Assembly (NCBI GenBank): GCA_041665025.1
Contig: JBAYJP010000001.1
Location: 16,207 to 80,206, forward strand
Direction of reading: 5' to 3'
Source of the DNA: Candidatus Magasanikiibacteriota bacterium
GTDB lineage: Bacteria; Patescibacteriota; Patescibacteriia; Magasanikbacterales; UBA922
DNA: 64,000 nt
The number at the start of each line of letters is the position of its first letter. Position 1 is the first letter of the stretch. Under the pieces are notes generated by a model. The model saw only the letters and a program-made list of their open reading frames with translations. It had not been told where the DNA came from and ran no database searches. The position numbers and the translations under genes were made by a program. This document shows positions 1,686 through 17,444 of this stretch, one piece after another.

Positions 1686-3779
1686 ATGGAAAAAGAATCT
1701 ACAAACATCCATGATGAGCGTATTATCCGCATTGAAAAACTCAATGAGCTTAAAGCAATGGATATAAACCCCTATCCAGCACGTTGTAGACGTACACATA
1801 CTCTTGCACAGGCACGGGACATAGGCGAAGGAGAACAGGCTGTGATTGTTGGTCGAATTATGACCAAACGTACCATGGGTAAAATTATTTTCTGTCATCT
1901 CCAAGACGAAAGCGGTCGTCTGCAAGTGGTCATCAAGTCAGATGTCATTGACACAGATAGTTTTACTTTATTTGAAAAAAAAATTGATTCAGCAGATATT
2001 ATTTCAGTTGAAGGAGAACGTTTTACAACTCAAAAAGGTGAGCCATCTATTTTAGCTAAAAAATGGTTTTTGCTCTCCAAGTCTCTCCTTCCATTACCAG
2101 ATAAGTTTCACGGTCTCAGCGACGAAGAAACTCGTTATCGAAAGCGCTATCTTGATTTTTTGGTTAATGTTGAACAGAGAGAAAAAATAGTAGTGAGATC
2201 AAAAATTCTCCGTTTTATACGTACATTTTTGGAAGAAAAGGGATTTGTTGAAGTTGAAACTCCGGTTCTTGAAACTATTGCCTCAGGTGCTATGGCACGC
2301 ACATTTGATACACATCTCAATGCATATGATTTGGATGTCCATTTGCGCATATGCATGGGAGAGCTTTGGCAAAAACGGTTGCTTGTTGGTGGATTTGAAA
2401 AAACATTTGAAATGGGAAGGGCTTTTCGTAACGAGGGTGTAGATCATCAGCACAATCCTGAATTCACTATGCTTGAATATTATTGGGCGTATGCTGATTA
2501 TGAAGATAACATGAAACTACATGAAGAAATGATTCCTTATATTATTGATAAAGCAATTGGAAAATTAGAAGTTGAAGTTGATGGACATCTCATTAATTTT
2601 AAGCCACCTTATCCGCGTGTGACATTTCATGACGCGGTGCTTGAACATTCAGGAATTGATATTGATGCTTATGAAGATCCAAAAGAATTGAGAGAAGTAA
2701 TGGTAAAAAAAGGATATGATCCTGAAAATATTACTGAACGAGGAAAATTATTAGATAATTTATATAAGCAATCAGCTCGTCCAAAGATTATACAACCTAC
2801 ATTTGTTTTGAATTATCCTGTTGAATTAAAACCTCTCGCAAAACTTTCTTTAAATCCGCACTACACGGAGATGTTTCAACTAATTGTGAATGGTTTTGAA
2901 TTGAGTAATTCATATACTGAATTAAATGATCCTCTCGATCAACGTAAGCGTTTTGAAGGCCAGACAAAAAATAAACAGCAAGGTGATGAAGAGGCAATGG
3001 AGAATGACTGGGATTATGTCGAGGCGCTTGAACATGGAATGCCACCGGCAACAGGAACAGGAATTGGTATTGATCGTTTTGCTGCACTCATCACAGGATC
3101 ACATACCTTGCGCGAAGTTACCGCTTTTCCCATCATGAAGCCGGCACCTCAAGAAATAAACAGTAATGAAACAAAACAAGTCAAAAATGATGTCAATGAA
3201 GAGCTTCCTGTGACACGAGACGAAGCATTGAGTCTCATAAAAAAATATACGAAAAAAGAAGCTAATTTAAATCATTACCTTGAATCTGAAGCAGTTATGA
3301 GAGCGTTGGCTCGGCATCTTGGGCGTAATGAAGACTATTGGGGCATGCTCGGGCTTTTGCATGATATCGATTGGGAAATTACTGAACACGACTCAACCCA
3401 ACACCTTACTAAGGCTCCTGATTTATTGCGTGAAATGAAATTTGACGAAGATTTTATTAATATCATTTTGTCGCATGGGTATGGCTTTGAATGTGCAGGC
3501 TTAAAAGATAAAAAAAGGACACAAGAACTAGAACATGCTCTTGCGTGTAGTGAGACAGTGACGGGCCTTATTTATGCGACCGCCCTTATGCGTCCGGAAA
3601 AAATAAATGGTCTTGAAGTTTCTTCGGTAAAGAAAAAATTTAAAGATAAAAAATTTGCAGCCAATGTTTCTCGGGAAGTAATTCTTGAATGTGAAAAAAT
3701 TGGGTTAACACTCGATAATTTTTTACAGATAGCGATCGACGCCATGAAAAAAATTGCTCCAAAAATAGGTTTAATTTAA
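1686..3779 (+). CDS. lysS: Lysyl-tRNA synthetase (class II) fused to a C-terminal HD-domain (YqeK-like) hydrolase module
   Basis: Class II aaRS motifs (FEMGRAFRNEGVDHQHNPEFTMLEYY, GIGIDR). About 190 extra C-terminal residues carry H...LLHDIDW...H...D HD-domain signatures. Confidence 0.85.
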   Translation: MEKESTNIHDERIIRIEKLNELKAMDINPYPARCRRTHTLAQARDIGEGEQAVIVGRIMTKRTMGKIIFCHLQDESGRLQVVIKSDVIDTDSFTLFEKKIDSADIISVEGERFTTQKGEPSILAKKWFLLSKSLLPLPDKFHGLSDEETRYRKRYLDFLVNVEQREKIVVRSKILRFIRTFLEEKGFVEVETPVLETIASGAMARTFDTHLNAYDLDVHLRICMGELWQKRLLVGGFEKTFEMGRAFRNEGVDHQHNPEFTMLEYYWAYADYEDNMKLHEEMIPYIIDKAIGKLEVEVDGHLINFKPPYPRVTFHDAVLEHSGIDIDAYEDPKELREVMVKKGYDPENITERGKLLDNLYKQSARPKIIQPTFVLNYPVELKPLAKLSLNPHYTEMFQLIVNGFELSNSYTELNDPLDQRKRFEGQTKNKQQGDEEAMENDWDYVEALEHGMPPATGTGIGIDRFAALITGSHTLREVTAFPIMKPAPQEINSNETKQVKNDVNEELPVTRDEALSLIKKYTKKEANLNHYLESEAVMRALARHLGRNEDYWGMLGLLHDIDWEITEHDSTQHLTKAPDLLREMKFDEDFINIILSHGYGFECAGLKDKKRTQELEHALACSETVTGLIYATALMRPEKINGLEVSSVKKKFKDKKFAANVSREVILECEKIGLTLDNFLQIAIDAMKKIAPKIGLI

Positions 3780-3863: not shown

Positions 3864-4283
3864 ATGAAAAAAGTAATGTTATTCGGCACGTTTGATATTG
3901 TACATGCGGGACATATTCATATGTTCAGACAAGCGCGAGAGTATGGTGACTACTTAGTTGTGTCTGTTGCACGCGACATAAATGCAGAAAAAGTAAAAGG
4001 GGAAGCTCCTTTGCATAATGAACAAGAACGTTTGGAGTTTTTAAAACATATTGATTTGATTGACGAGGTAGTTTTGGGGGCTATCGAAGATCCTTATCAT
4101 CATATTAGTATCGTGCGTCCTCATGTCATTGCACTGGGGTATGACCAAAAGACGTATGTAGATAATCTTGCAAATGCATTGACTCAGTATGGTATTGAAG
4201 CTGAAATTGTGAGGCTTCGCCCGTATGAAGAACAGAGGTTTAAAAGTAGCAAATTAAAAAAATACATGGAACGAATCGTCTAA
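3864..4283 (+). CDS. Cytidylyltransferase-family protein (TagD glycerol-3-phosphate cytidylyltransferase / RibL-like)
   Basis: MKKVMLFGTFDIVHAGH nucleotidyltransferase HxGH motif, closely patterned on TagD; an internal ATG is taken as the start. Confidence 0.65.
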   Translation: MKKVMLFGTFDIVHAGHIHMFRQAREYGDYLVVSVARDINAEKVKGEAPLHNEQERLEFLKHIDLIDEVVLGAIEDPYHHISIVRPHVIALGYDQKTYVDNLANALTQYGIEAEIVRLRPYEEQRFKSSKLKKYMERIV

Positions 4284-4284
4284 T

Positions 4285-5319
4285 ATGAAAAAGACTAAAC
4301 TGCTTATTGCAACAACTAATCAGCATAAATTTAAAGAGTTTTCCTACGTGCTTGGTTCATTTCCTTTTGTACAGCTCGTTGGACTAAAAGACTTAAAAAA
4401 GAAGATGATCGAACCAGAAGAGACAGGCAAAACGTTAAGTGAAAATGCATTTATTAAAGCGGAGTACTATGCACAAAAAACCGGTTTAATTACGTTAGCA
4501 GACGATACGGGCATATTTATTGATACACTAGGAGGATGGCCGGGTGTTACCAGTGCTCGGATAGGGTCAACTGATGAAGAACGCCGCGGTATCGTTCTTG
4601 GCAGAATGAAAGGAAAGAAAAATAGAAAAGCTCATTTTAGATGTACTCTGGTATTGTATGATCCTCAATCAGGTACTTCTTTTATCGCACATGGTGAAAA
4701 AGAGGGGAGAGTCACTGAAAAACCTGTAGGAAATAAGTTTACTTTTGATTCAATATTTTTTATACCTGAAAAAAGAAAAACATACGCAGAAATGAATCTG
4801 GATGAAAAAAATGCAATTAGTCATAGAGGCAAAGCATTAACAAAAGTTAAATATTATTTACAGAATCAATATGGTACAAAACATATTGTCGTCCCGTTTG
4901 GCTTGGTGATAAAAAATGGAAAAATTTTACTTCTAAAAAGAAATGATCCTCATCGTCCTGCGTATCATGGTAAGTGGGAATTTCCTGGCGGTAGCGTTGA
5001 GTACGGCGAGGCAATACATGACAACGTAGTGCGTGAAGTTCATGAAGAAACGGGATACAAAGTTCAGGTAGTCAAAATGCTTCAGCATATCGCGACCGAC
5101 AAACAATCATATCCCACATACAAATATCAAGTCTATCTAATTCCACATGTGTGCAAAATTGTTGGGGGAAAAGGTAACCCATCAGATTCCGAAAATCTTG
5201 GTCAAAAATTTGTCGATTTGGATAAAGTATCGACATATGATTTGATTGGGAATGACAAAAAAATGTTTAAAAAGTTTTTGCCGGAGTTGAAAAAGATTGT
5301 CAATTTAAATAAAAAATGA
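4285..5319 (+). CDS. Non-canonical purine NTP pyrophosphatase (Ham1/RdgB) fused to a NUDIX hydrolase domain
   Basis: N-terminal Ham1 pattern (LLIATTNQHKFKEF...). C-terminal Nudix box GGSVEYGEAIHDNVVREVHEETGY. Confidence 0.75.
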   Translation: MKKTKLLIATTNQHKFKEFSYVLGSFPFVQLVGLKDLKKKMIEPEETGKTLSENAFIKAEYYAQKTGLITLADDTGIFIDTLGGWPGVTSARIGSTDEERRGIVLGRMKGKKNRKAHFRCTLVLYDPQSGTSFIAHGEKEGRVTEKPVGNKFTFDSIFFIPEKRKTYAEMNLDEKNAISHRGKALTKVKYYLQNQYGTKHIVVPFGLVIKNGKILLLKRNDPHRPAYHGKWEFPGGSVEYGEAIHDNVVREVHEETGYKVQVVKMLQHIATDKQSYPTYKYQVYLIPHVCKIVGGKGNPSDSENLGQKFVDLDKVSTYDLIGNDKKMFKKFLPELKKIVNLNKK

Positions 5320-5323
5320 GGAT

Positions 5324-5725
5324 ATGAAAAATATAATTTATAAAAAAATTCAAAACTTTCTTTTATGGTTATTAGGATTAATTGATATCGGGAGCCTAAT
5401 AGTATTTATCGATTCACAAAAATTTATAGACAAAACAGAAGTGAAAGAAGTCTGGTTATTATATTTATTAGTATTTGGTGTTCTAATTCCATTTTTGGGT
5501 ATTTGTTTAATAGCTTCATATTTTTTACTGAGAAGTAAACAAAACACAAGGCAAAAATTAGGAAAAAATATCGGGGTGGTAGTTTCTGGCATATATATTG
5601 TTTTTTTAATTTTTGCAATGATTTATTATGAATTAATTGGTTTAACTGTTATTTTGCAAATTTTTGCTTATACAACTCTAATTGTGTTGCTGCTAAAAAA
5701 TAAATTTACTGTTATTAAAAATTAA
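5324..5725 (+). CDS. Hypothetical small polytopic membrane protein
   Basis: Hydrophobic helices, no recognisable motif. Confidence 0.4.
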   Translation: MKNIIYKKIQNFLLWLLGLIDIGSLIVFIDSQKFIDKTEVKEVWLLYLLVFGVLIPFLGICLIASYFLLRSKQNTRQKLGKNIGVVVSGIYIVFLIFAMIYYELIGLTVILQIFAYTTLIVLLLKNKFTVIKN

Positions 5726-5733
5726 TTCTTTAT

Positions 5734-6969
5734 ATGCTTGACATCAAACTTATCCGTGAAAATACAGATGAAGTTAAACAAAATTGTATAAATAGGAATG
5801 TAAAAGTCAATATTGACCAATTGTTACAATTGGACGAAGAGCGTAGAGATTTTCGTCAACAGGTCGATGATTTACGTGCAGAACGAAATAGAAAATCAAA
5901 AGGTAAACCGACAGAAGACGAAATAGTTCGTATGCGCGAAGTGGGGGATAAGATTAAACAACTAGAAGATCGTTTGCTTGAAATTGAAGACGCACACAGC
6001 GCATTACTTTTGCAGGTACCAAATATGACGCACGGGGAATCTCCTATTGGTGGTGAAGAAGATTTTAAAGTGGTAGAAGAGTGCGGGAACATACCTCAAT
6101 TTGATTTTGAGCCTAAGGACCACGAGGAACTCATGCTCGAACATGATTTAATTGATTTTGAAAGAGGCGCGAAGGTGACAGGAAGCAAATTTTATTTTGT
6201 AAAAAATGACATGGTAAGAATGAACCAGGCGCTAATCAACTACGGGCTTGACGTGGTCACTGCACATGGATTTACTATGGTTGAAACACCGGATCTTGCA
6301 AAACATGAAATCCTTCTTGGCGCAGGATTTAATCCGCGAGGAACAGAAAAACAGATTTATAACATTGTTGAGGAAGAATTGAGCTTGGTTGGTACTGCGG
6401 AAATCACCATGCTCGGCTACCACGCAAATGAGGTTTTGGATTTTAGTAATGGATCAAAAAAATATGTTGCCTTGTCACATTGTTTCCGAACCGAAGCGGG
6501 TTCATATGGCCGGACAAGCAAAGGATTGTATCGTGTTCATCAATTTACCAAATTGGAAATGTTTATCTTTTGTAAGCCCGAAGATAGTGAAAAACATCAT
6601 CAAGAACTATTATCCATTGAAAAAGAAATTTGTGACGGGCTTGAACTACCCTATCGTGTCATCGATATTGCGTCGGGTGATTTAGGCGGACCCGCGTATC
6701 GAAAATACGATATCGAAGCTTGGATGGTCATGAACCAAGGATATGGTGAGATTACGAGTACGAGCAACTGCACAGATTATCAGGCACGACGTCTAAATAT
6801 TAGATATAAGAAAGAGGATGGAACTTTGGACTTTGTTCATACACTCAATGGTACTGCGGTAGTACTCAGTCGTTTTCCTATTGCGATTATTGAAAATTAT
6901 CAGCAGAAAGATGGAAGTATAAAAGTACCAGAGGTATTGAAGAAATGGTTGGGAAAAGAAAAAATTTAG
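5734..6969 (+). CDS. serS: Seryl-tRNA synthetase
   Basis: N-terminal coiled-coil arm, class II core motifs, ~410 aa. Confidence 0.9.
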   Translation: MLDIKLIRENTDEVKQNCINRNVKVNIDQLLQLDEERRDFRQQVDDLRAERNRKSKGKPTEDEIVRMREVGDKIKQLEDRLLEIEDAHSALLLQVPNMTHGESPIGGEEDFKVVEECGNIPQFDFEPKDHEELMLEHDLIDFERGAKVTGSKFYFVKNDMVRMNQALINYGLDVVTAHGFTMVETPDLAKHEILLGAGFNPRGTEKQIYNIVEEELSLVGTAEITMLGYHANEVLDFSNGSKKYVALSHCFRTEAGSYGRTSKGLYRVHQFTKLEMFIFCKPEDSEKHHQELLSIEKEICDGLELPYRVIDIASGDLGGPAYRKYDIEAWMVMNQGYGEITSTSNCTDYQARRLNIRYKKEDGTLDFVHTLNGTAVVLSRFPIAIIENYQQKDGSIKVPEVLKKWLGKEKI

Positions 6970-14668: not shown

Positions 14669-15919
14669 CTAATAATCCTTAACGAGATAGTTCAATGGAT
14701 TCACTGGAATACCATTTTTACGTATTTCAAAATGTAGATGAGGACCGGTAGTAAAAGGACCTGCTCCCACGGTACCTGGAGTAGCACCCGAATACCCTAT
14801 CAGGTCTCCACGGCTTACATATTGGTCTTCTGACACGGAAATTGAGCTCATATGTCCATACACCGTAGAAAATCCACCAGAGTGTATAATCATGACATAG
14901 GCATAACAAGACGCTGTTGTACACGTACGAGCACGGGCAATATAGCCTGATTTTGTGGCGTGTATTGCCGTCCCATGCGAAGCGCGGATATCTATGGCTG
15001 GGTGCTCAAAGATGTTTCGGTATGGATAGTTCTCATCATGAAAATATGCAGTGACGTATCTGCTCTGCGTTGGCCATGAAAACTGTGTGTCATCTTCGAC
15101 ACCAGAAAATCGCTGCTCTTCTTCTAGTTTGCGTCGAACTTGTTGTTCAATACTTGAAATTTCGGCATCAATCTGCTGATAAATTTTACGCAAATTTGCA
15201 AGCTGAGTTTTGTATTGCAATTCAGAAGATTTGGTTGCAAATAAAAGTTGTTCCTTGTATTCTCCTTGTTCTTCAAGATCTTTTTTTCTATTATCCAATT
15301 TTTGTTTCAATTCTTCGTAACTTAATTTTCGTTCCTCGGTTTGTTGTTTTTTATTTTCCAAATCTTCTTTTGCGAGGCGTATAGTCTTCGTGCTTTCTCC
15401 CATGTCACGTTCAACATTTTTTACATAATGAACACGTCCATAAAAATCTGAAAATGAATCATACGCTGCCAAAATTTCAATATACTTTTTGTTATTCTCG
15501 TAATGCAGTGTGCGTATAAGCTCGGCAAGAATCTTTTTCTGTCGAGTTATAACCTGCTCTTTTTCTGAAATAGAGAGTCCTAAACTTTCTATTTCCAAAG
15601 TTAACGTGCCTAATTTTTCTTCTGTAGCTTCTATATCTAGCTCAATTTGAACGGTATAATTATCTAAAATGGCAATTTGGTTTGAAAGAGATACTGCCTC
15701 ACTTTGTTTTTGCTGAACTTTTTTCTTATATTCTTCAATGCTTTGTTCAAGTTGTCTTACTTTTTCTTTTTTTTCTGCAATTTGTCTATTAAGTTCGTCT
15801 ATTTCTGCCTTGTTTCCTCCAGTATCTTCTGAAAAAACAAAAGCAGGCCTTAATACAAGACCACCCACGATGAAGAGGAAGATACTCACTACAAGAAGTA
15901 GCGTTTGTCTTTTGTTCAC
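14669..15919 (-). CDS. M23 peptidase with long coiled coil (EnvC-like murein hydrolase/activator)
   Basis: C-terminal M23 LytM motifs (HxxxD-like, GPHLHFEIR), N-terminal TM and heptad-rich coiled coil. The ORF track starts at 16108, inside gltX, and is rejected in favour of a GTG at 15919. Confidence 0.7.
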   Translation of the reverse strand: MNKRQTLLLVVSIFLFIVGGLVLRPAFVFSEDTGGNKAEIDELNRQIAEKKEKVRQLEQSIEEYKKKVQQKQSEAVSLSNQIAILDNYTVQIELDIEATEEKLGTLTLEIESLGLSISEKEQVITRQKKILAELIRTLHYENNKKYIEILAAYDSFSDFYGRVHYVKNVERDMGESTKTIRLAKEDLENKKQQTEERKLSYEELKQKLDNRKKDLEEQGEYKEQLLFATKSSELQYKTQLANLRKIYQQIDAEISSIEQQVRRKLEEEQRFSGVEDDTQFSWPTQSRYVTAYFHDENYPYRNIFEHPAIDIRASHGTAIHATKSGYIARARTCTTASCYAYVMIIHSGGFSTVYGHMSSISVSEDQYVSRGDLIGYSGATPGTVGAGPFTTGPHLHFEIRKNGIPVNPLNYLVKDY

Positions 15920-15974
15920 ATGCAGTAAATAAAAACACCAGATAGTTACTCCAGTGTTTAGTATATCATATTTT

Positions 15975-17444
15975 TTATAACATGCTAAGAGCGTTCTTAA
16001 CGCGATCGAGTGTTTTTTCTTTACCAAGTGCCACAGCAATCTCGAGAGGGCCTGGGGAATTCTTTTGTCCTGAGAGTGCGACACGCATAGGCCATAAGAC
16101 ATCCCCATTTCCCCATGCCTTCTCTTTAATCCAGGGCAGGATCTGTTTTTCCAGTGTTTCCTTAGACCACTCCCCCTCTAAACTATTCAAAAATTCAAGC
16201 AATGCGATTAATTTTTCTTTTGTCTGTTCTTTGGTAGATTTTTTCCACACAAGAAGTTCTGCTTCGTAGTCTAGTGTATTGGAAAAAATGAATGTGACAT
16301 TTTCTACCAGTTCGACAAGAGTAGACGCTCTCCCCTGCTCCAGTGCAACTACATCCCGAATCCCGAATCCCGAATCCGGAATCTTAAGACTTTCTTTTTC
16401 AAAAAAAGATTTACATCTTTCCGCTAGCTCTGCAGAATCAAGACTCATAATATACTGCTTATTGTACCAATTCAATTTTTCACGATTAAACACAGCCGCA
16501 GGCTTATGTACTTTACTAAAATCAAATTCCTTTTCAAGTTCTGCCAAACTAAAAATTTCTTTTTCTCCACCAGGGTTCCAACCTAAAAATGCAATAAAAT
16601 TAATGATTGCTTCTGGTAGATAACCTTTCTGTTTAAAATCTTCAACTGATACGTCTCCATGTCGTTTACTTAATTTTTGTTTTTCTTCATTTATAAGCAT
16701 GGAAAGATGGCCGAACTGTGGCAATTCCCAACCAAACATGTTGTATAAGGTAATATGCTTAGGTGTTGAAGGCAACCATTCTTCACCACGGATAACATGG
16801 GTAACTTCCATAAGGTGGTCATCTACAACAACGGCTAAATGATAAGTTGGGAATCCATCAGCCTTAACGAGAACTTGATCATCGGCTAATTCATTCTTAA
16901 ATTCAACTTTCCCTCGTACCATGTCGTCTACGACCGTAACCCCAGTTTTTGGCATTTTCATGCGCATGATACACTTCTCCCCTGCCGTAACGCGTTTTTG
17001 AGCCTCTACAACGTCTAAATCTCGACAATGACCATCATAACCCGTAGGCATTTTATTTAATTCTTGATATTTTCTAACTTCCTCAAGACGTTCTTTACTA
17101 CAAAAACAATAATATGCATGACCTTGCTCAATGAGCTGATTAGCGTATTTTTTGTAAATATCCAAACGCTGTGATTGTATATATGGCCCTTTATCACCTT
17201 TTTGAATAACTTTTCCTTCATCATTTACATCAACGCCTTCATCAATACTAATTCCTGCCCATGTGAGTGAATTAATCATATTTTCAGTGCCACCCTCAAC
17301 AAATCGCTCCTGGTCAGTATCTTCTATACGCATCATAAAGATACCACCATTTTTTTTGGCAAATAAATAAGAATATAGAGCAGTACGAAGACCTCCTACA
17401 TGTAGAAAACCGGTTGGACTTGGGGCAAAACGTGTTTTGATCAT
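15975..17444 (-). CDS. gltX: Glutamyl-tRNA synthetase
   Basis: Class I HIGH-like motif (PSPTGFLHVGG) and KLSKR motif. Contains an in-frame (TCCCGAA)x3-4 heptamer repeat at 16354-16381. Confidence 0.9.
   Translation of the reverse strand: MIKTRFAPSPTGFLHVGGLRTALYSYLFAKKNGGIFMMRIEDTDQERFVEGGTENMINSLTWAGISIDEGVDVNDEGKVIQKGDKGPYIQSQRLDIYKKYANQLIEQGHAYYCFCSKERLEEVRKYQELNKMPTGYDGHCRDLDVVEAQKRVTAGEKCIMRMKMPKTGVTVVDDMVRGKVEFKNELADDQVLVKADGFPTYHLAVVVDDHLMEVTHVIRGEEWLPSTPKHITLYNMFGWELPQFGHLSMLINEEKQKLSKRHGDVSVEDFKQKGYLPEAIINFIAFLGWNPGGEKEIFSLAELEKEFDFSKVHKPAAVFNREKLNWYNKQYIMSLDSAELAERCKSFFEKESLKIPDSGFGIRDVVALEQGRASTLVELVENVTFIFSNTLDYEAELLVWKKSTKEQTKEKLIALLEFLNSLEGEWSKETLEKQILPWIKEKAWGNGDVLWPMRVALSGQKNSPGPLEIAVALGKEKTLDRVKNALSML

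Follow-up and report, generated by a model that had tools for sequence, protein, structure and literature searches.

Here we report that a single open reading frame (ORF) at positions 1686 to 3779 of a 64,000-nt stretch of DNA from a Candidatus Magasanikiibacteriota bacterium (contig JBAYJP010000001.1, positions 16,207 to 80,206 of the forward strand; the whole stretch is called the window below) encodes a class II lysyl-tRNA synthetase (LysRS, the lysS product) fused to a complete HD-domain module. In DPANN archaea and Patescibacteria the HD module is normally a separate protein of ∼190 aa whose gene directly follows lysS, and it has merged with LysRS in several lineages; our comparisons show that selection has maintained the association of the LysRS and HD functions in both Bacteria and Archaea. 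Reasoning by analogy, we tentatively rank first a role for the HD module in clearing the dinucleoside polyphosphates, of the diadenosine tetraphosphate (Ap4A) type, that LysRS itself makes.

The fusion gene and its product

The ORF and its features are as follows, with residues numbered along the 697-aa product and model confidence given as the predicted local distance difference test (pLDDT).

1686..3779, + strand: complete LysRS::HD ORF, ATG start, 697 aa plus stop, uninterrupted in the ORF listing
1842..2075, + strand: LysRS anticodon-binding OB fold, residues 53-130 (Pfam PF01336, tRNA_anti-codon, 53.9 bits)
2121..3137, + strand: class II LysRS catalytic core, residues 146-484 (Pfam PF00152, tRNA-synt_2, 267.5 bits)
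3144..3206, + strand: flexible linker APQEINSNETKQVKNDVNEEL, residues 487-507, of low pLDDT and not conserved in fused homologues
3207..3776, + strand: complete HDIG-type HD module, residues 508-697 (PF01966 and TIGR00277 both over cutoff)
3273..3275, + strand: H530, first putative metal ligand (HYLESE motif), invariant in alignments
3360..3374, + strand: residues 559-563, with the H559-D560 doublet of LLHDIDW (residues 557-563); H559, D560, D562 and W563 invariant
3402..3404, + strand: H573 (HLTKAP), invariant; putative second-metal ligand from the six-residue dinuclear pattern
3474..3476, + strand: H597 (SHGYG), invariant; putative second-metal ligand from the same pattern
3552..3554, + strand: E623 (SETVTG), putative ligand at the site of the HD motif's terminal D
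3624..3674, + strand: conserved basic motif SVKKKFKDKKFAANVSR, residues 647-663, with K651, K653, F657 and R663 invariant in fused proteins

Residues 10-486 match the NCBIfam lysS equivalog TIGR00499 at 524.1 bits (cutoff 427.6), and PRK00484 scores 581 (cutoff 468) over the LysRS part, to which the LysX model also aligns. The equivalog-level match, the OB anticodon domain and the class II core together place this half among class II LysRS enzymes, and an alignment of 26 fused homologues shows that the class II invariant residues are kept. The full-length AlphaFold2 (AF2) model has a pLDDT of 85.8 and a predicted TM-score (pTM) of 0.63; its OB fold is beta-rich at pLDDT above 90 and residues 487-502 fall below 50, so that the prediction describes two independent modules joined by a disordered tether of ∼20 residues.

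Over residues 528-604 the second half matches the Pfam HD model PF01966 at 29.1 bits (29.1-31.6 overall; cutoff 22) and, over residues 527-597, the NCBIfam HDIG model TIGR00277 at 37.7 bits (37.7-40.8 overall; cutoff 27.6). With both models over cutoff and H530, H559-D560 and E623 invariant, it belongs to the HD/HDIG superfamily. The module corresponds to the entire stand-alone protein of ∼190 aa, N-terminal helix included, and 50 stand-alone proteins match it over its whole length at 56-75% identity; modelled alone by AF2 it is all-helical, with pLDDT 93.5 and pTM 0.91. A reading of this gene made earlier from the letters alone (the sequence-only reading) had proposed a synthetase carrying a YqeK-like HD hydrolase with the motif H...LLHDIDW...H...D. 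H530, LLHDIDW, H573 and H597 are all present; the final acid, however, is E623 and not an aspartate. The metal-binding residues are intact, H530, H559, D560, D562, W563, H573 and H597 being invariant in the 26 fused homologues and H530 and the other His/Asp ligand positions also in 51 HD family members. E623, which sits in a long helix (614-634) of the AF2 model, is an invariant Glu in the close family and Glu or Asp in distant members, and all six ligand positions are preserved in every architecture of the family examined. So is the basic motif, as [K][KR][FM]K.K.FA..V.R[ED], which may contact phosphate or nucleic acid.

The proposed fusion is borne out by one ORF, by Pfam and NCBIfam matches to both halves and by conserved fused homologues. 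The frameshift or missed stop that might have produced it at the junction is not there: positions 3140-3210 contain neither a stop nor a homopolymer, and no in-frame ATG lies between residues 484 and 530. At least three contigs, drawn from different assemblies, carry the identical 697-aa product in the same gene order. A full-length search recovered ∼26 fused clusters of 689-733 aa from Magasanikbacteria, other Patescibacteria and Gracilibacteria, at 45-70% identity and 97-100% query coverage, and in 10 more full-length fused representatives the LysRS half shares just 37-44% identity with that of the window. Fused homologues with both halves kept thus occur in Patescibacteria and DPANN archaea.

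Split calls do occur, as in the relative L003 (GCA_035092285.1; L and P numbers denote loci and proteins of our survey), where an in-frame TAA has led to lysS::HD being annotated as separate genes, with products of 525 aa and 183 aa. We rejected this locus as an ancestral two-gene state since the split is a single TAA (5995-5997) within the conserved first helix of the HD module, which marks a disrupted fusion; the TAA may represent a nonsense mutation, an error of sequencing or a site of read-through. Given the same product in different assemblies, the dozens of fused homologues known from both Bacteria and Archaea at 37-70% identity, and a clean junction, there is a negligible chance that the window is explained by sequencing error, a missed stop or chimeric assembly of lysS with an HD gene, and an artefact is ruled out for practical purposes. 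Judged by its conserved residues the LysRS half appears fully competent and, by its ligands, the HD half appears catalytically intact, and we are highly confident that the fusion is genuine.

Linkage of the HD module to lysS

Screening one genome for each GTDB species turned up 264 genomes that encode a close relative of the HD module. Linkage was counted in the best 80 of these 264 loci, mostly from DPANN archaea with some from Patescibacteria, and an HD ORF was called in 79; the taxonomy of contigs from metagenome-assembled genomes is that of the record titles. LysRS::HD fusions account for 12 of the 79 loci, a plain class II lysS lies directly upstream on the same strand in 22 (most gaps −44 to +23 nt) and two to seven genes upstream on the same strand in nine, and the flank examined contains no lysS in 36, all of these counts being inflated by shared ancestry and not phylogenetically independent. 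Clustering at 80% HD identity reduces the 79 loci to 63 clusters, 11 of them purely fused and 19 purely adjacent. The survey for separate and fused genes that had been suggested thus finds both states (12 fused, 22 adjacent). The architecture had also been called unusual, which holds for ordinary bacteria; in Patescibacteria and DPANN archaea, however, lysS-HD pairing is common and fusion recurrent. A divergent Patescibacteria locus reads PBP2-GreA-lysS-HD, with a 4-nt overlap of lysS and HD, and is syntenic with the window.

Six of the 12 fusions lie in loci labelled Pace-, Woese- or Diapherotrites archaea, and in two of these six only do neighbouring genes support the label: L015, with the recurrent acylphosphatase gene upstream, and L028, with an Hjc-cluster gene downstream. 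In a simple bootstrapped neighbour-joining (NJ) tree of the LysRS halves, fused archaeal genes are sister to adjacent but unfused ones (bootstraps of 100 for L038 with L088, 100 for L027 with L053 and 64 for L015 with L034), and a single clade of fused archaeal LysRS is recovered in 0 of 100 replicates. Fused genes that are sister to unfused ones and never form one clade imply at least three independent fusions in archaea alone. The HD-domain tree has very short internal branches and no bootstrap, and allows weak conclusions only. With weak tree support, there are hints in the sequences that the lysS-HD pair may have been transferred between domains of life.

The DPANN loci (L015, L023-L088) carry a bacterial-type class II LysRS that falls into two deep clades, and their HD domains form a shallow clade beside more divergent Patescibacteria sequences. 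The recurrent neighbours in archaeal-labelled loci are acylphosphatase, TrmY, Cbf5 and Hjc, the last three as expected for archaeal contigs; we considered these neighbours as a functional clue and rejected them, as they look like inherited synteny. In many DPANN loci (23 archaeal loci, L015-L089; for example L015 3782-4072) the acylphosphatase gene (PF00708) precedes lysS-HD by one or two genes in the same orientation, and the Hjc resolvase gene is usually the next after HD in those loci.

The module is absent from some relatives. Many Magasanikbacteria have the order GreA-lysS-nucleotidyltransferase without HD, and a comparison of L013 (5948-6640) with L090 (5478-5539), which share 87% nucleotide identity across the locus and are both followed by a PDDEXK_3 gene, reveals a clean indel of ∼630 nt that is exactly the linker plus the HD module.

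Other partners of the HD module fall on and off LysRS. Together with LysRS it occurs as LysRS::tRNA_bind::B3_4::HD (P0239), LysRS::DUF2000::HD and LysRS::HAD::HD; apart from LysRS it occurs as HD::Ham1, PAS-GGDEF::HD, AMMECR1::HD, beta-propeller::HD and FtsY with HD. The 150 best HD representatives include 28 long proteins, and in these no aminoacyl-tRNA synthetase other than LysRS was seen joined to the module. In FtsY, the signal recognition particle receptor, of DPANN archaea the module is inserted after the N-terminal amphipathic/acidic region and before the NG GTPase domain, and the resulting proteins are 571-628 aa long (L039 5785-7497, L050 4648-6366, L087 5680-7521; also P0250). In a bacterial locus a stand-alone HD gene is followed after 5 nt by a HIT-family (Hint/DcpS-like) gene (L008 5001-5956, L009 1892-2847). 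The LysRS C-terminus of related Magasanikbacteria carries DUF2000 (PF09391) alone, DUF2000 with HD, HAD with HD, or tRNA_bind with B3_4 and HD (P0159, P0162, P0166, P0171, P0176, P0188, P0190, P0192, P0211, P0212, P0216, P0223, P0224, P0230, P0232, P0262, P0317 and P0239), and appears to be a preferred site for the addition of domains.

Candidate functions of the HD family

A strongly conserved lysS-HD operon that has been fused several times independently in two domains of life is a classic Rosetta-stone signal, pointing to an HD family that acts on something that LysRS makes or uses. LysRS is described in review as a major, classic producer of Ap4A and Ap4N. We propose that the HD module would bind two metal ions via H530, H559/D560, H573, H597 and E623 and would then hydrolyse a nucleotide by-product of LysRS adenylate chemistry, most likely a dinucleoside polyphosphate (Ap4A, Ap4N or Ap3A) formed when ATP or another NTP attacks lysyl-AMP. 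Synthesis and removal of the dinucleotide would thereby be co-expressed 1:1 and co-localised on one chain. Six invariant ligands in the order H..HD..H..H..E/D predict a dinuclear-type active site, since the pattern H...HD...H...H...D is diagnostic of such sites, that of YqeK included (PMC8177086). YqeK is fused to or clustered with NadD and hydrolyses the erroneous dinucleotide products of NadD (PMC9426524); it is by analogy with this dinuclear enzyme, tied to the producer of its substrate, that clearance of Ap4A-type products of LysRS stands first in our ranking. The HD module would then be a functional analogue of YqeK/ApaH and of NadD::YqeK ‘proofreading’, drawn from another HD family. The partners Ham1, GGDEF, HAD, FtsY and HIT, together with a Ham1::NUDIX gene two genes downstream in the window, point to nucleotide chemistry, and these partners make us lean further toward clearance of LysRS-made dinucleotides; as HIT enzymes act on adenylylated lysine and ApnA, the HD-HIT pair may bear on the HD substrate.

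Ap4A comes mainly from LysRS, its known bacterial degraders are ApaH, YqeK and enzymes of the Nudix type, and there is debate over what it does physiologically. To our knowledge YqeK is the only HD enzyme known to cleave Ap4A, and we know of no Ap4A degrader described for the ultra-small Patescibacteria and DPANN archaea. It is possible, though we hold this with less confidence than the clearance of Ap4A-type products itself, that the HD family is a new class of Ap4A/Np4N hydrolase, perhaps with Np4-RNA decapping activity, filling the place of ApaH/YqeK in DPANN archaea and Patescibacteria, either in an operon with LysRS or fused to it. If Ap4A is the substrate, a new hydrolase family would be defined, the fusion would be the first single polypeptide to both make and degrade Ap4A, and it would offer a natural single-chain system for measuring the flux of alarmone synthesis and removal; should the substrate be a tRNA end instead, a new repair activity coupled to an aminoacyl-tRNA synthetase would have been found.

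Several observations weigh against clearance of LysRS products. The synteny counts are inflated by shared ancestry, 36 loci have no lysS in the flank examined, and family members in ordinary bacteria and other phyla are unlinked to lysS. The absence of the module from a relative 87% identical across the locus and from many Magasanikbacteria implies that it is dispensable. The family, a large one, is also functionally anonymous. The HD module searched alone matched 7977 proteins, of which the best 120 are all stand-alone ‘HDIG/HD family’ proteins of ∼190 aa at 57-76% identity, the named ones among them being from DPANN archaea; the family profile gathers 3606 clusters (50% identity) at E ≤ 1e-3 and 1398 at E ≤ 1e-10. 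Database names recovered for the family are all generic (‘hydrolase’, ‘HD domain-containing protein’, ‘predicted hydrolase (HD superfamily)’), no characterised member appears among them, and there is no enzymology for any member.

The nearest NCBIfam models are the RNase Y HD region (matched by 49 of 51 family members), the archaeal TIGR00295 family and the HD tail of archaeal Trm56 (PRK12703; 46 of 51, best E 7.6e-8). After the generic HDIG domain, which all 51 match, TIGR00295 and PRK12703 lie closest (46-51 of 51 members, best E ∼1e-7), and the window HD scores well short of both families (18.4 bits against a cutoff of 172 for TIGR00295, 14.3 against 434 for PRK12703). A Foldseek search of the PDB with the HD module model returned nothing at E ≤ 1e-3; the best TM-scores were those of PgpH (0.50-0.54) and the HD domain of the glycyl-tRNA synthetase beta subunit (GlyRS-beta; 0.49-0.54). 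Together with the RNA-related nearest models, these make an RNA or tRNA phosphodiesterase an equally good structural fit.

The label ‘YqeK-like’ given by the sequence-only reading cannot be kept as a family assignment. No YqeK model of NCBIfam matched the window HD or any of the 51 family members even at E ≤ 10, and the NadD::YqeK model PRK07152 is touched by two of the 51 only (E 0.014). PDB sequence matches to YqeK (2ogi, 8wmy, 8jja) are top-ranked yet non-significant (E 0.17-0.43), and YqeK structures in the Foldseek search (TM 0.42-0.49, E 0.02-0.1) do no better than PgpH or the GlyRS-beta HD. An hhalign comparison with N-terminal fragments of YqeK aligned 57 columns, ending at the HD doublet, at 81% probability, with a shallow YqeK profile that covers the N-terminal ∼120 residues, in which a single sequence extends as far as the fourth ligand and which does not take in the terminal Asp. 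In this region HDIDW and ANLNH of the window stand against LLHDYAK and KRFKH of the YqeK fragments. The catalytic Lys of HDxxK (K62 in S. pyogenes YqeK) is missing from the window HD, and the family has no Arg at the third position ahead of the first His, a residue common to HD phosphatases (PMC8177086, Fig. 3 legend). At the level of sequence the ligand order is that of YqeK and the spacing after the HD doublet differs: the resemblance in spacing that had been claimed gives way to HD-13-H-24-H-26-E here versus HD-32-H-26-H-18-D in S. pyogenes YqeK. Nor was clustering or fusion with nadD seen, the window context being greA, lysS::HD and then a cytidylyl/adenylyltransferase other than NadD, and the family being linked to lysS. 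By every YqeK-specific sequence test, then, the HD family fails, and by its sequence the module appears to be a separate family and not a member of YqeK.

Among the alternatives, the strongest is that HD is a general nucleotide-pool or signalling hydrolase acting on dNTP/NTP, 8-oxo-GTP, (p)ppGpp, c-di-NMP or pApA and unrelated to LysRS products, with the lysS linkage reflecting inherited operon structure and the easy fusion of overlapping genes in streamlined genomes. Fusions to Ham1, HAD and GGDEF are in keeping with such a role, as are weak matches of 15 of the 51 members to dGTPase models of NCBIfam, the best TM-score going to PgpH, a c-di-AMP phosphodiesterase, the dispensability of HD in close relatives and the unlinked members of other phyla; YqeK, too, acts on 8-oxo-GTP (PMC9426524). 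The neighbourhood in the window is likewise nucleotide-sanitising, with two genes following the fusion:

3876..4283, + strand: adenylyl/cytidylyltransferase of 135 aa (TIGR00125; RfaE-II/TagD/RibL-like, under all equivalog cutoffs)
4285..5319, + strand: RdgB/Ham1 non-canonical NTP pyrophosphatase (TIGR00042, 166.8 bits; cutoff 145) joined to a MutT-like NUDIX domain

Neutral synteny, however, explains poorly the repeated independent LysRS fusions and a lysS that is always upstream on the same strand and often overlapping, across two domains of life and deeply divergent LysRS clades. We consider a general hydrolase unlikely, while taking it seriously as the nearest competitor.

Next comes an RNA or tRNA phosphodiesterase or phosphatase that would heal 2′,3′-cyclic-phosphate or 3′-phosphate ends of tRNA(Lys) or of tRNA in general, or decap Np4-RNA, the tether bringing repair and charging together; we judge it improbable too, and place it just behind. 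It draws on the HDIG, RNase Y and Trm56 matches above, on the tRNA-related add-ons of the same LysRS (tRNA_bind with B3_4 in P0239, and DUF2000), on the Lys-rich motif, which could bind a nucleic-acid backbone, on the missing phosphatase-type Arg, and on the GlyRS-beta HD being among the best structural matches, a domain that contacts the tRNA acceptor arm (PMC8464048). General repair of tRNA ends, however, gives no reason for pairing with LysRS only; the tRNA-related add-ons always co-occur with LysRS and so are not independent evidence on HD; the partners other than LysRS are nucleotide enzymes (Ham1, GGDEF, FtsY); and the structural and hidden Markov model similarities are all at superfamily level. 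A non-catalytic appendage for tRNA binding or regulation, for which the GlyRS-beta HD sets a precedent within an aminoacyl-tRNA synthetase (PMC8464048) and supplies chains to the Foldseek list, is very improbable, because GlyRS-beta has lost the doublet (Ser393/Lys394) whereas here all six ligand positions stay invariant whether the module is fused or free, and the same domain is mostly a free-standing protein.

We considered the 135-aa nucleotidyltransferase as NadD, which would have mimicked nadD-yqeK, and rejected it: the match is to generic TIGR00125, and the gene persists in relatives without HD. The Ham1::NUDIX fusion, conserved in the relatives L003, L004-L006 and L090 and two genes downstream of LysRS::HD, is by its predicted domains a second ‘nucleotide-sanitising’ fusion near LysRS::HD. 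Upstream, a terminator-like hairpin separates greA from the LysRS::HD gene. The 64-kb window contains no second HD copy and no YqeK-like sequence, and ARAGORN finds no tRNA gene in it. GC content falls to 0.24 at 5251-5750, over a membrane-like ORF of 133 aa (5324-5725) without a Pfam match. Further on, an M23 peptidase ORF (14669-16108) and a GluRS ORF (15975-17444), both on the − strand, overlap by 134 nt, and the start codon of the former is probably over-extended.

Comparison with known systems

The architecture is present in public databases and annotated only as LysRS; the identical protein is named ‘lysine--tRNA ligase [Candidatus Magasanikbacteria bacterium]’ at NCBI. Neither the fusion nor the lysS-HD operon was found described in the full text of ∼8 million papers, where terms combining LysRS or aminoacyl-tRNA synthetase with HD, DPANN or fusion led only to work on GlyRS-beta, and nothing on COG2316 or DUF2000 appeared in the literature searched. 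The fusion can be placed among known kinds of arrangement, as an aminoacyl-tRNA synthetase with an appended hydrolase or as a synthetase-hydrolase pair for a nucleotide.

YqeK (COG1713), the symmetrical Ap4A hydrolase of Firmicutes, shares with the HD module a size of ∼190 aa, an all-helical HD fold, an N-terminal helix followed by His, 28 residues and HD, and six ligand-type residues in the dinuclear order H..HD..H..H..acid; it is among the top Foldseek matches, and both are coupled in the genome to an adenylyl-transfer enzyme, NadD for YqeK and LysRS here. The two differ in that YqeK has HDxxK and the Arg at −3 whereas the module has HDIDW, no such Arg and a terminal Glu, and in that YqeK belongs to a nadD-yqeK context in Firmicutes and the module to a lysS context in DPANN archaea and Patescibacteria. 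The NadD::YqeK fusion of mycoplasmas (JCVI-Syn3A), a proofreading diphosphatase, follows the logic proposed here of tying a hydrolase to the producer of erroneous dinucleotides, with another partner enzyme and another HD family, the activity of the present protein being only predicted.

GlyRS-beta likewise holds an HD fold inside an aminoacyl-tRNA synthetase. Its HD is degenerate, the doublet being replaced by Ser-Lys, and serves acceptor-arm contact; in the fusion family, in contrast, the doublet and the other ligands are invariant and the domain also exists as a free protein. LysX is also a class II LysRS with an extra catalytic domain, a lysyl-phosphatidylglycerol synthase; that partner is N-terminal and consumes Lys-tRNA, whereas the partner here is C-terminal and a predicted phosphohydrolase. 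Trm56::HD (PRK12703) and the archaeal TIGR00295 proteins are uncharacterised HD modules too, one of them on a tRNA enzyme, although the window HD scores far under their family cutoffs. PgpH and the HD-GYP proteins, dinuclear phosphodiesterases often paired with GGDEF, have in common with it a dinuclear-type ligand pattern and the HDIG signature; the HD module differs from them in having no HH doublet, GYP motif, significant sequence match or membrane domain, but one member of its family (P0280) is fused to PAS-GGDEF and so reproduces the same arrangement of synthetase plus hydrolase for a dinucleotide.

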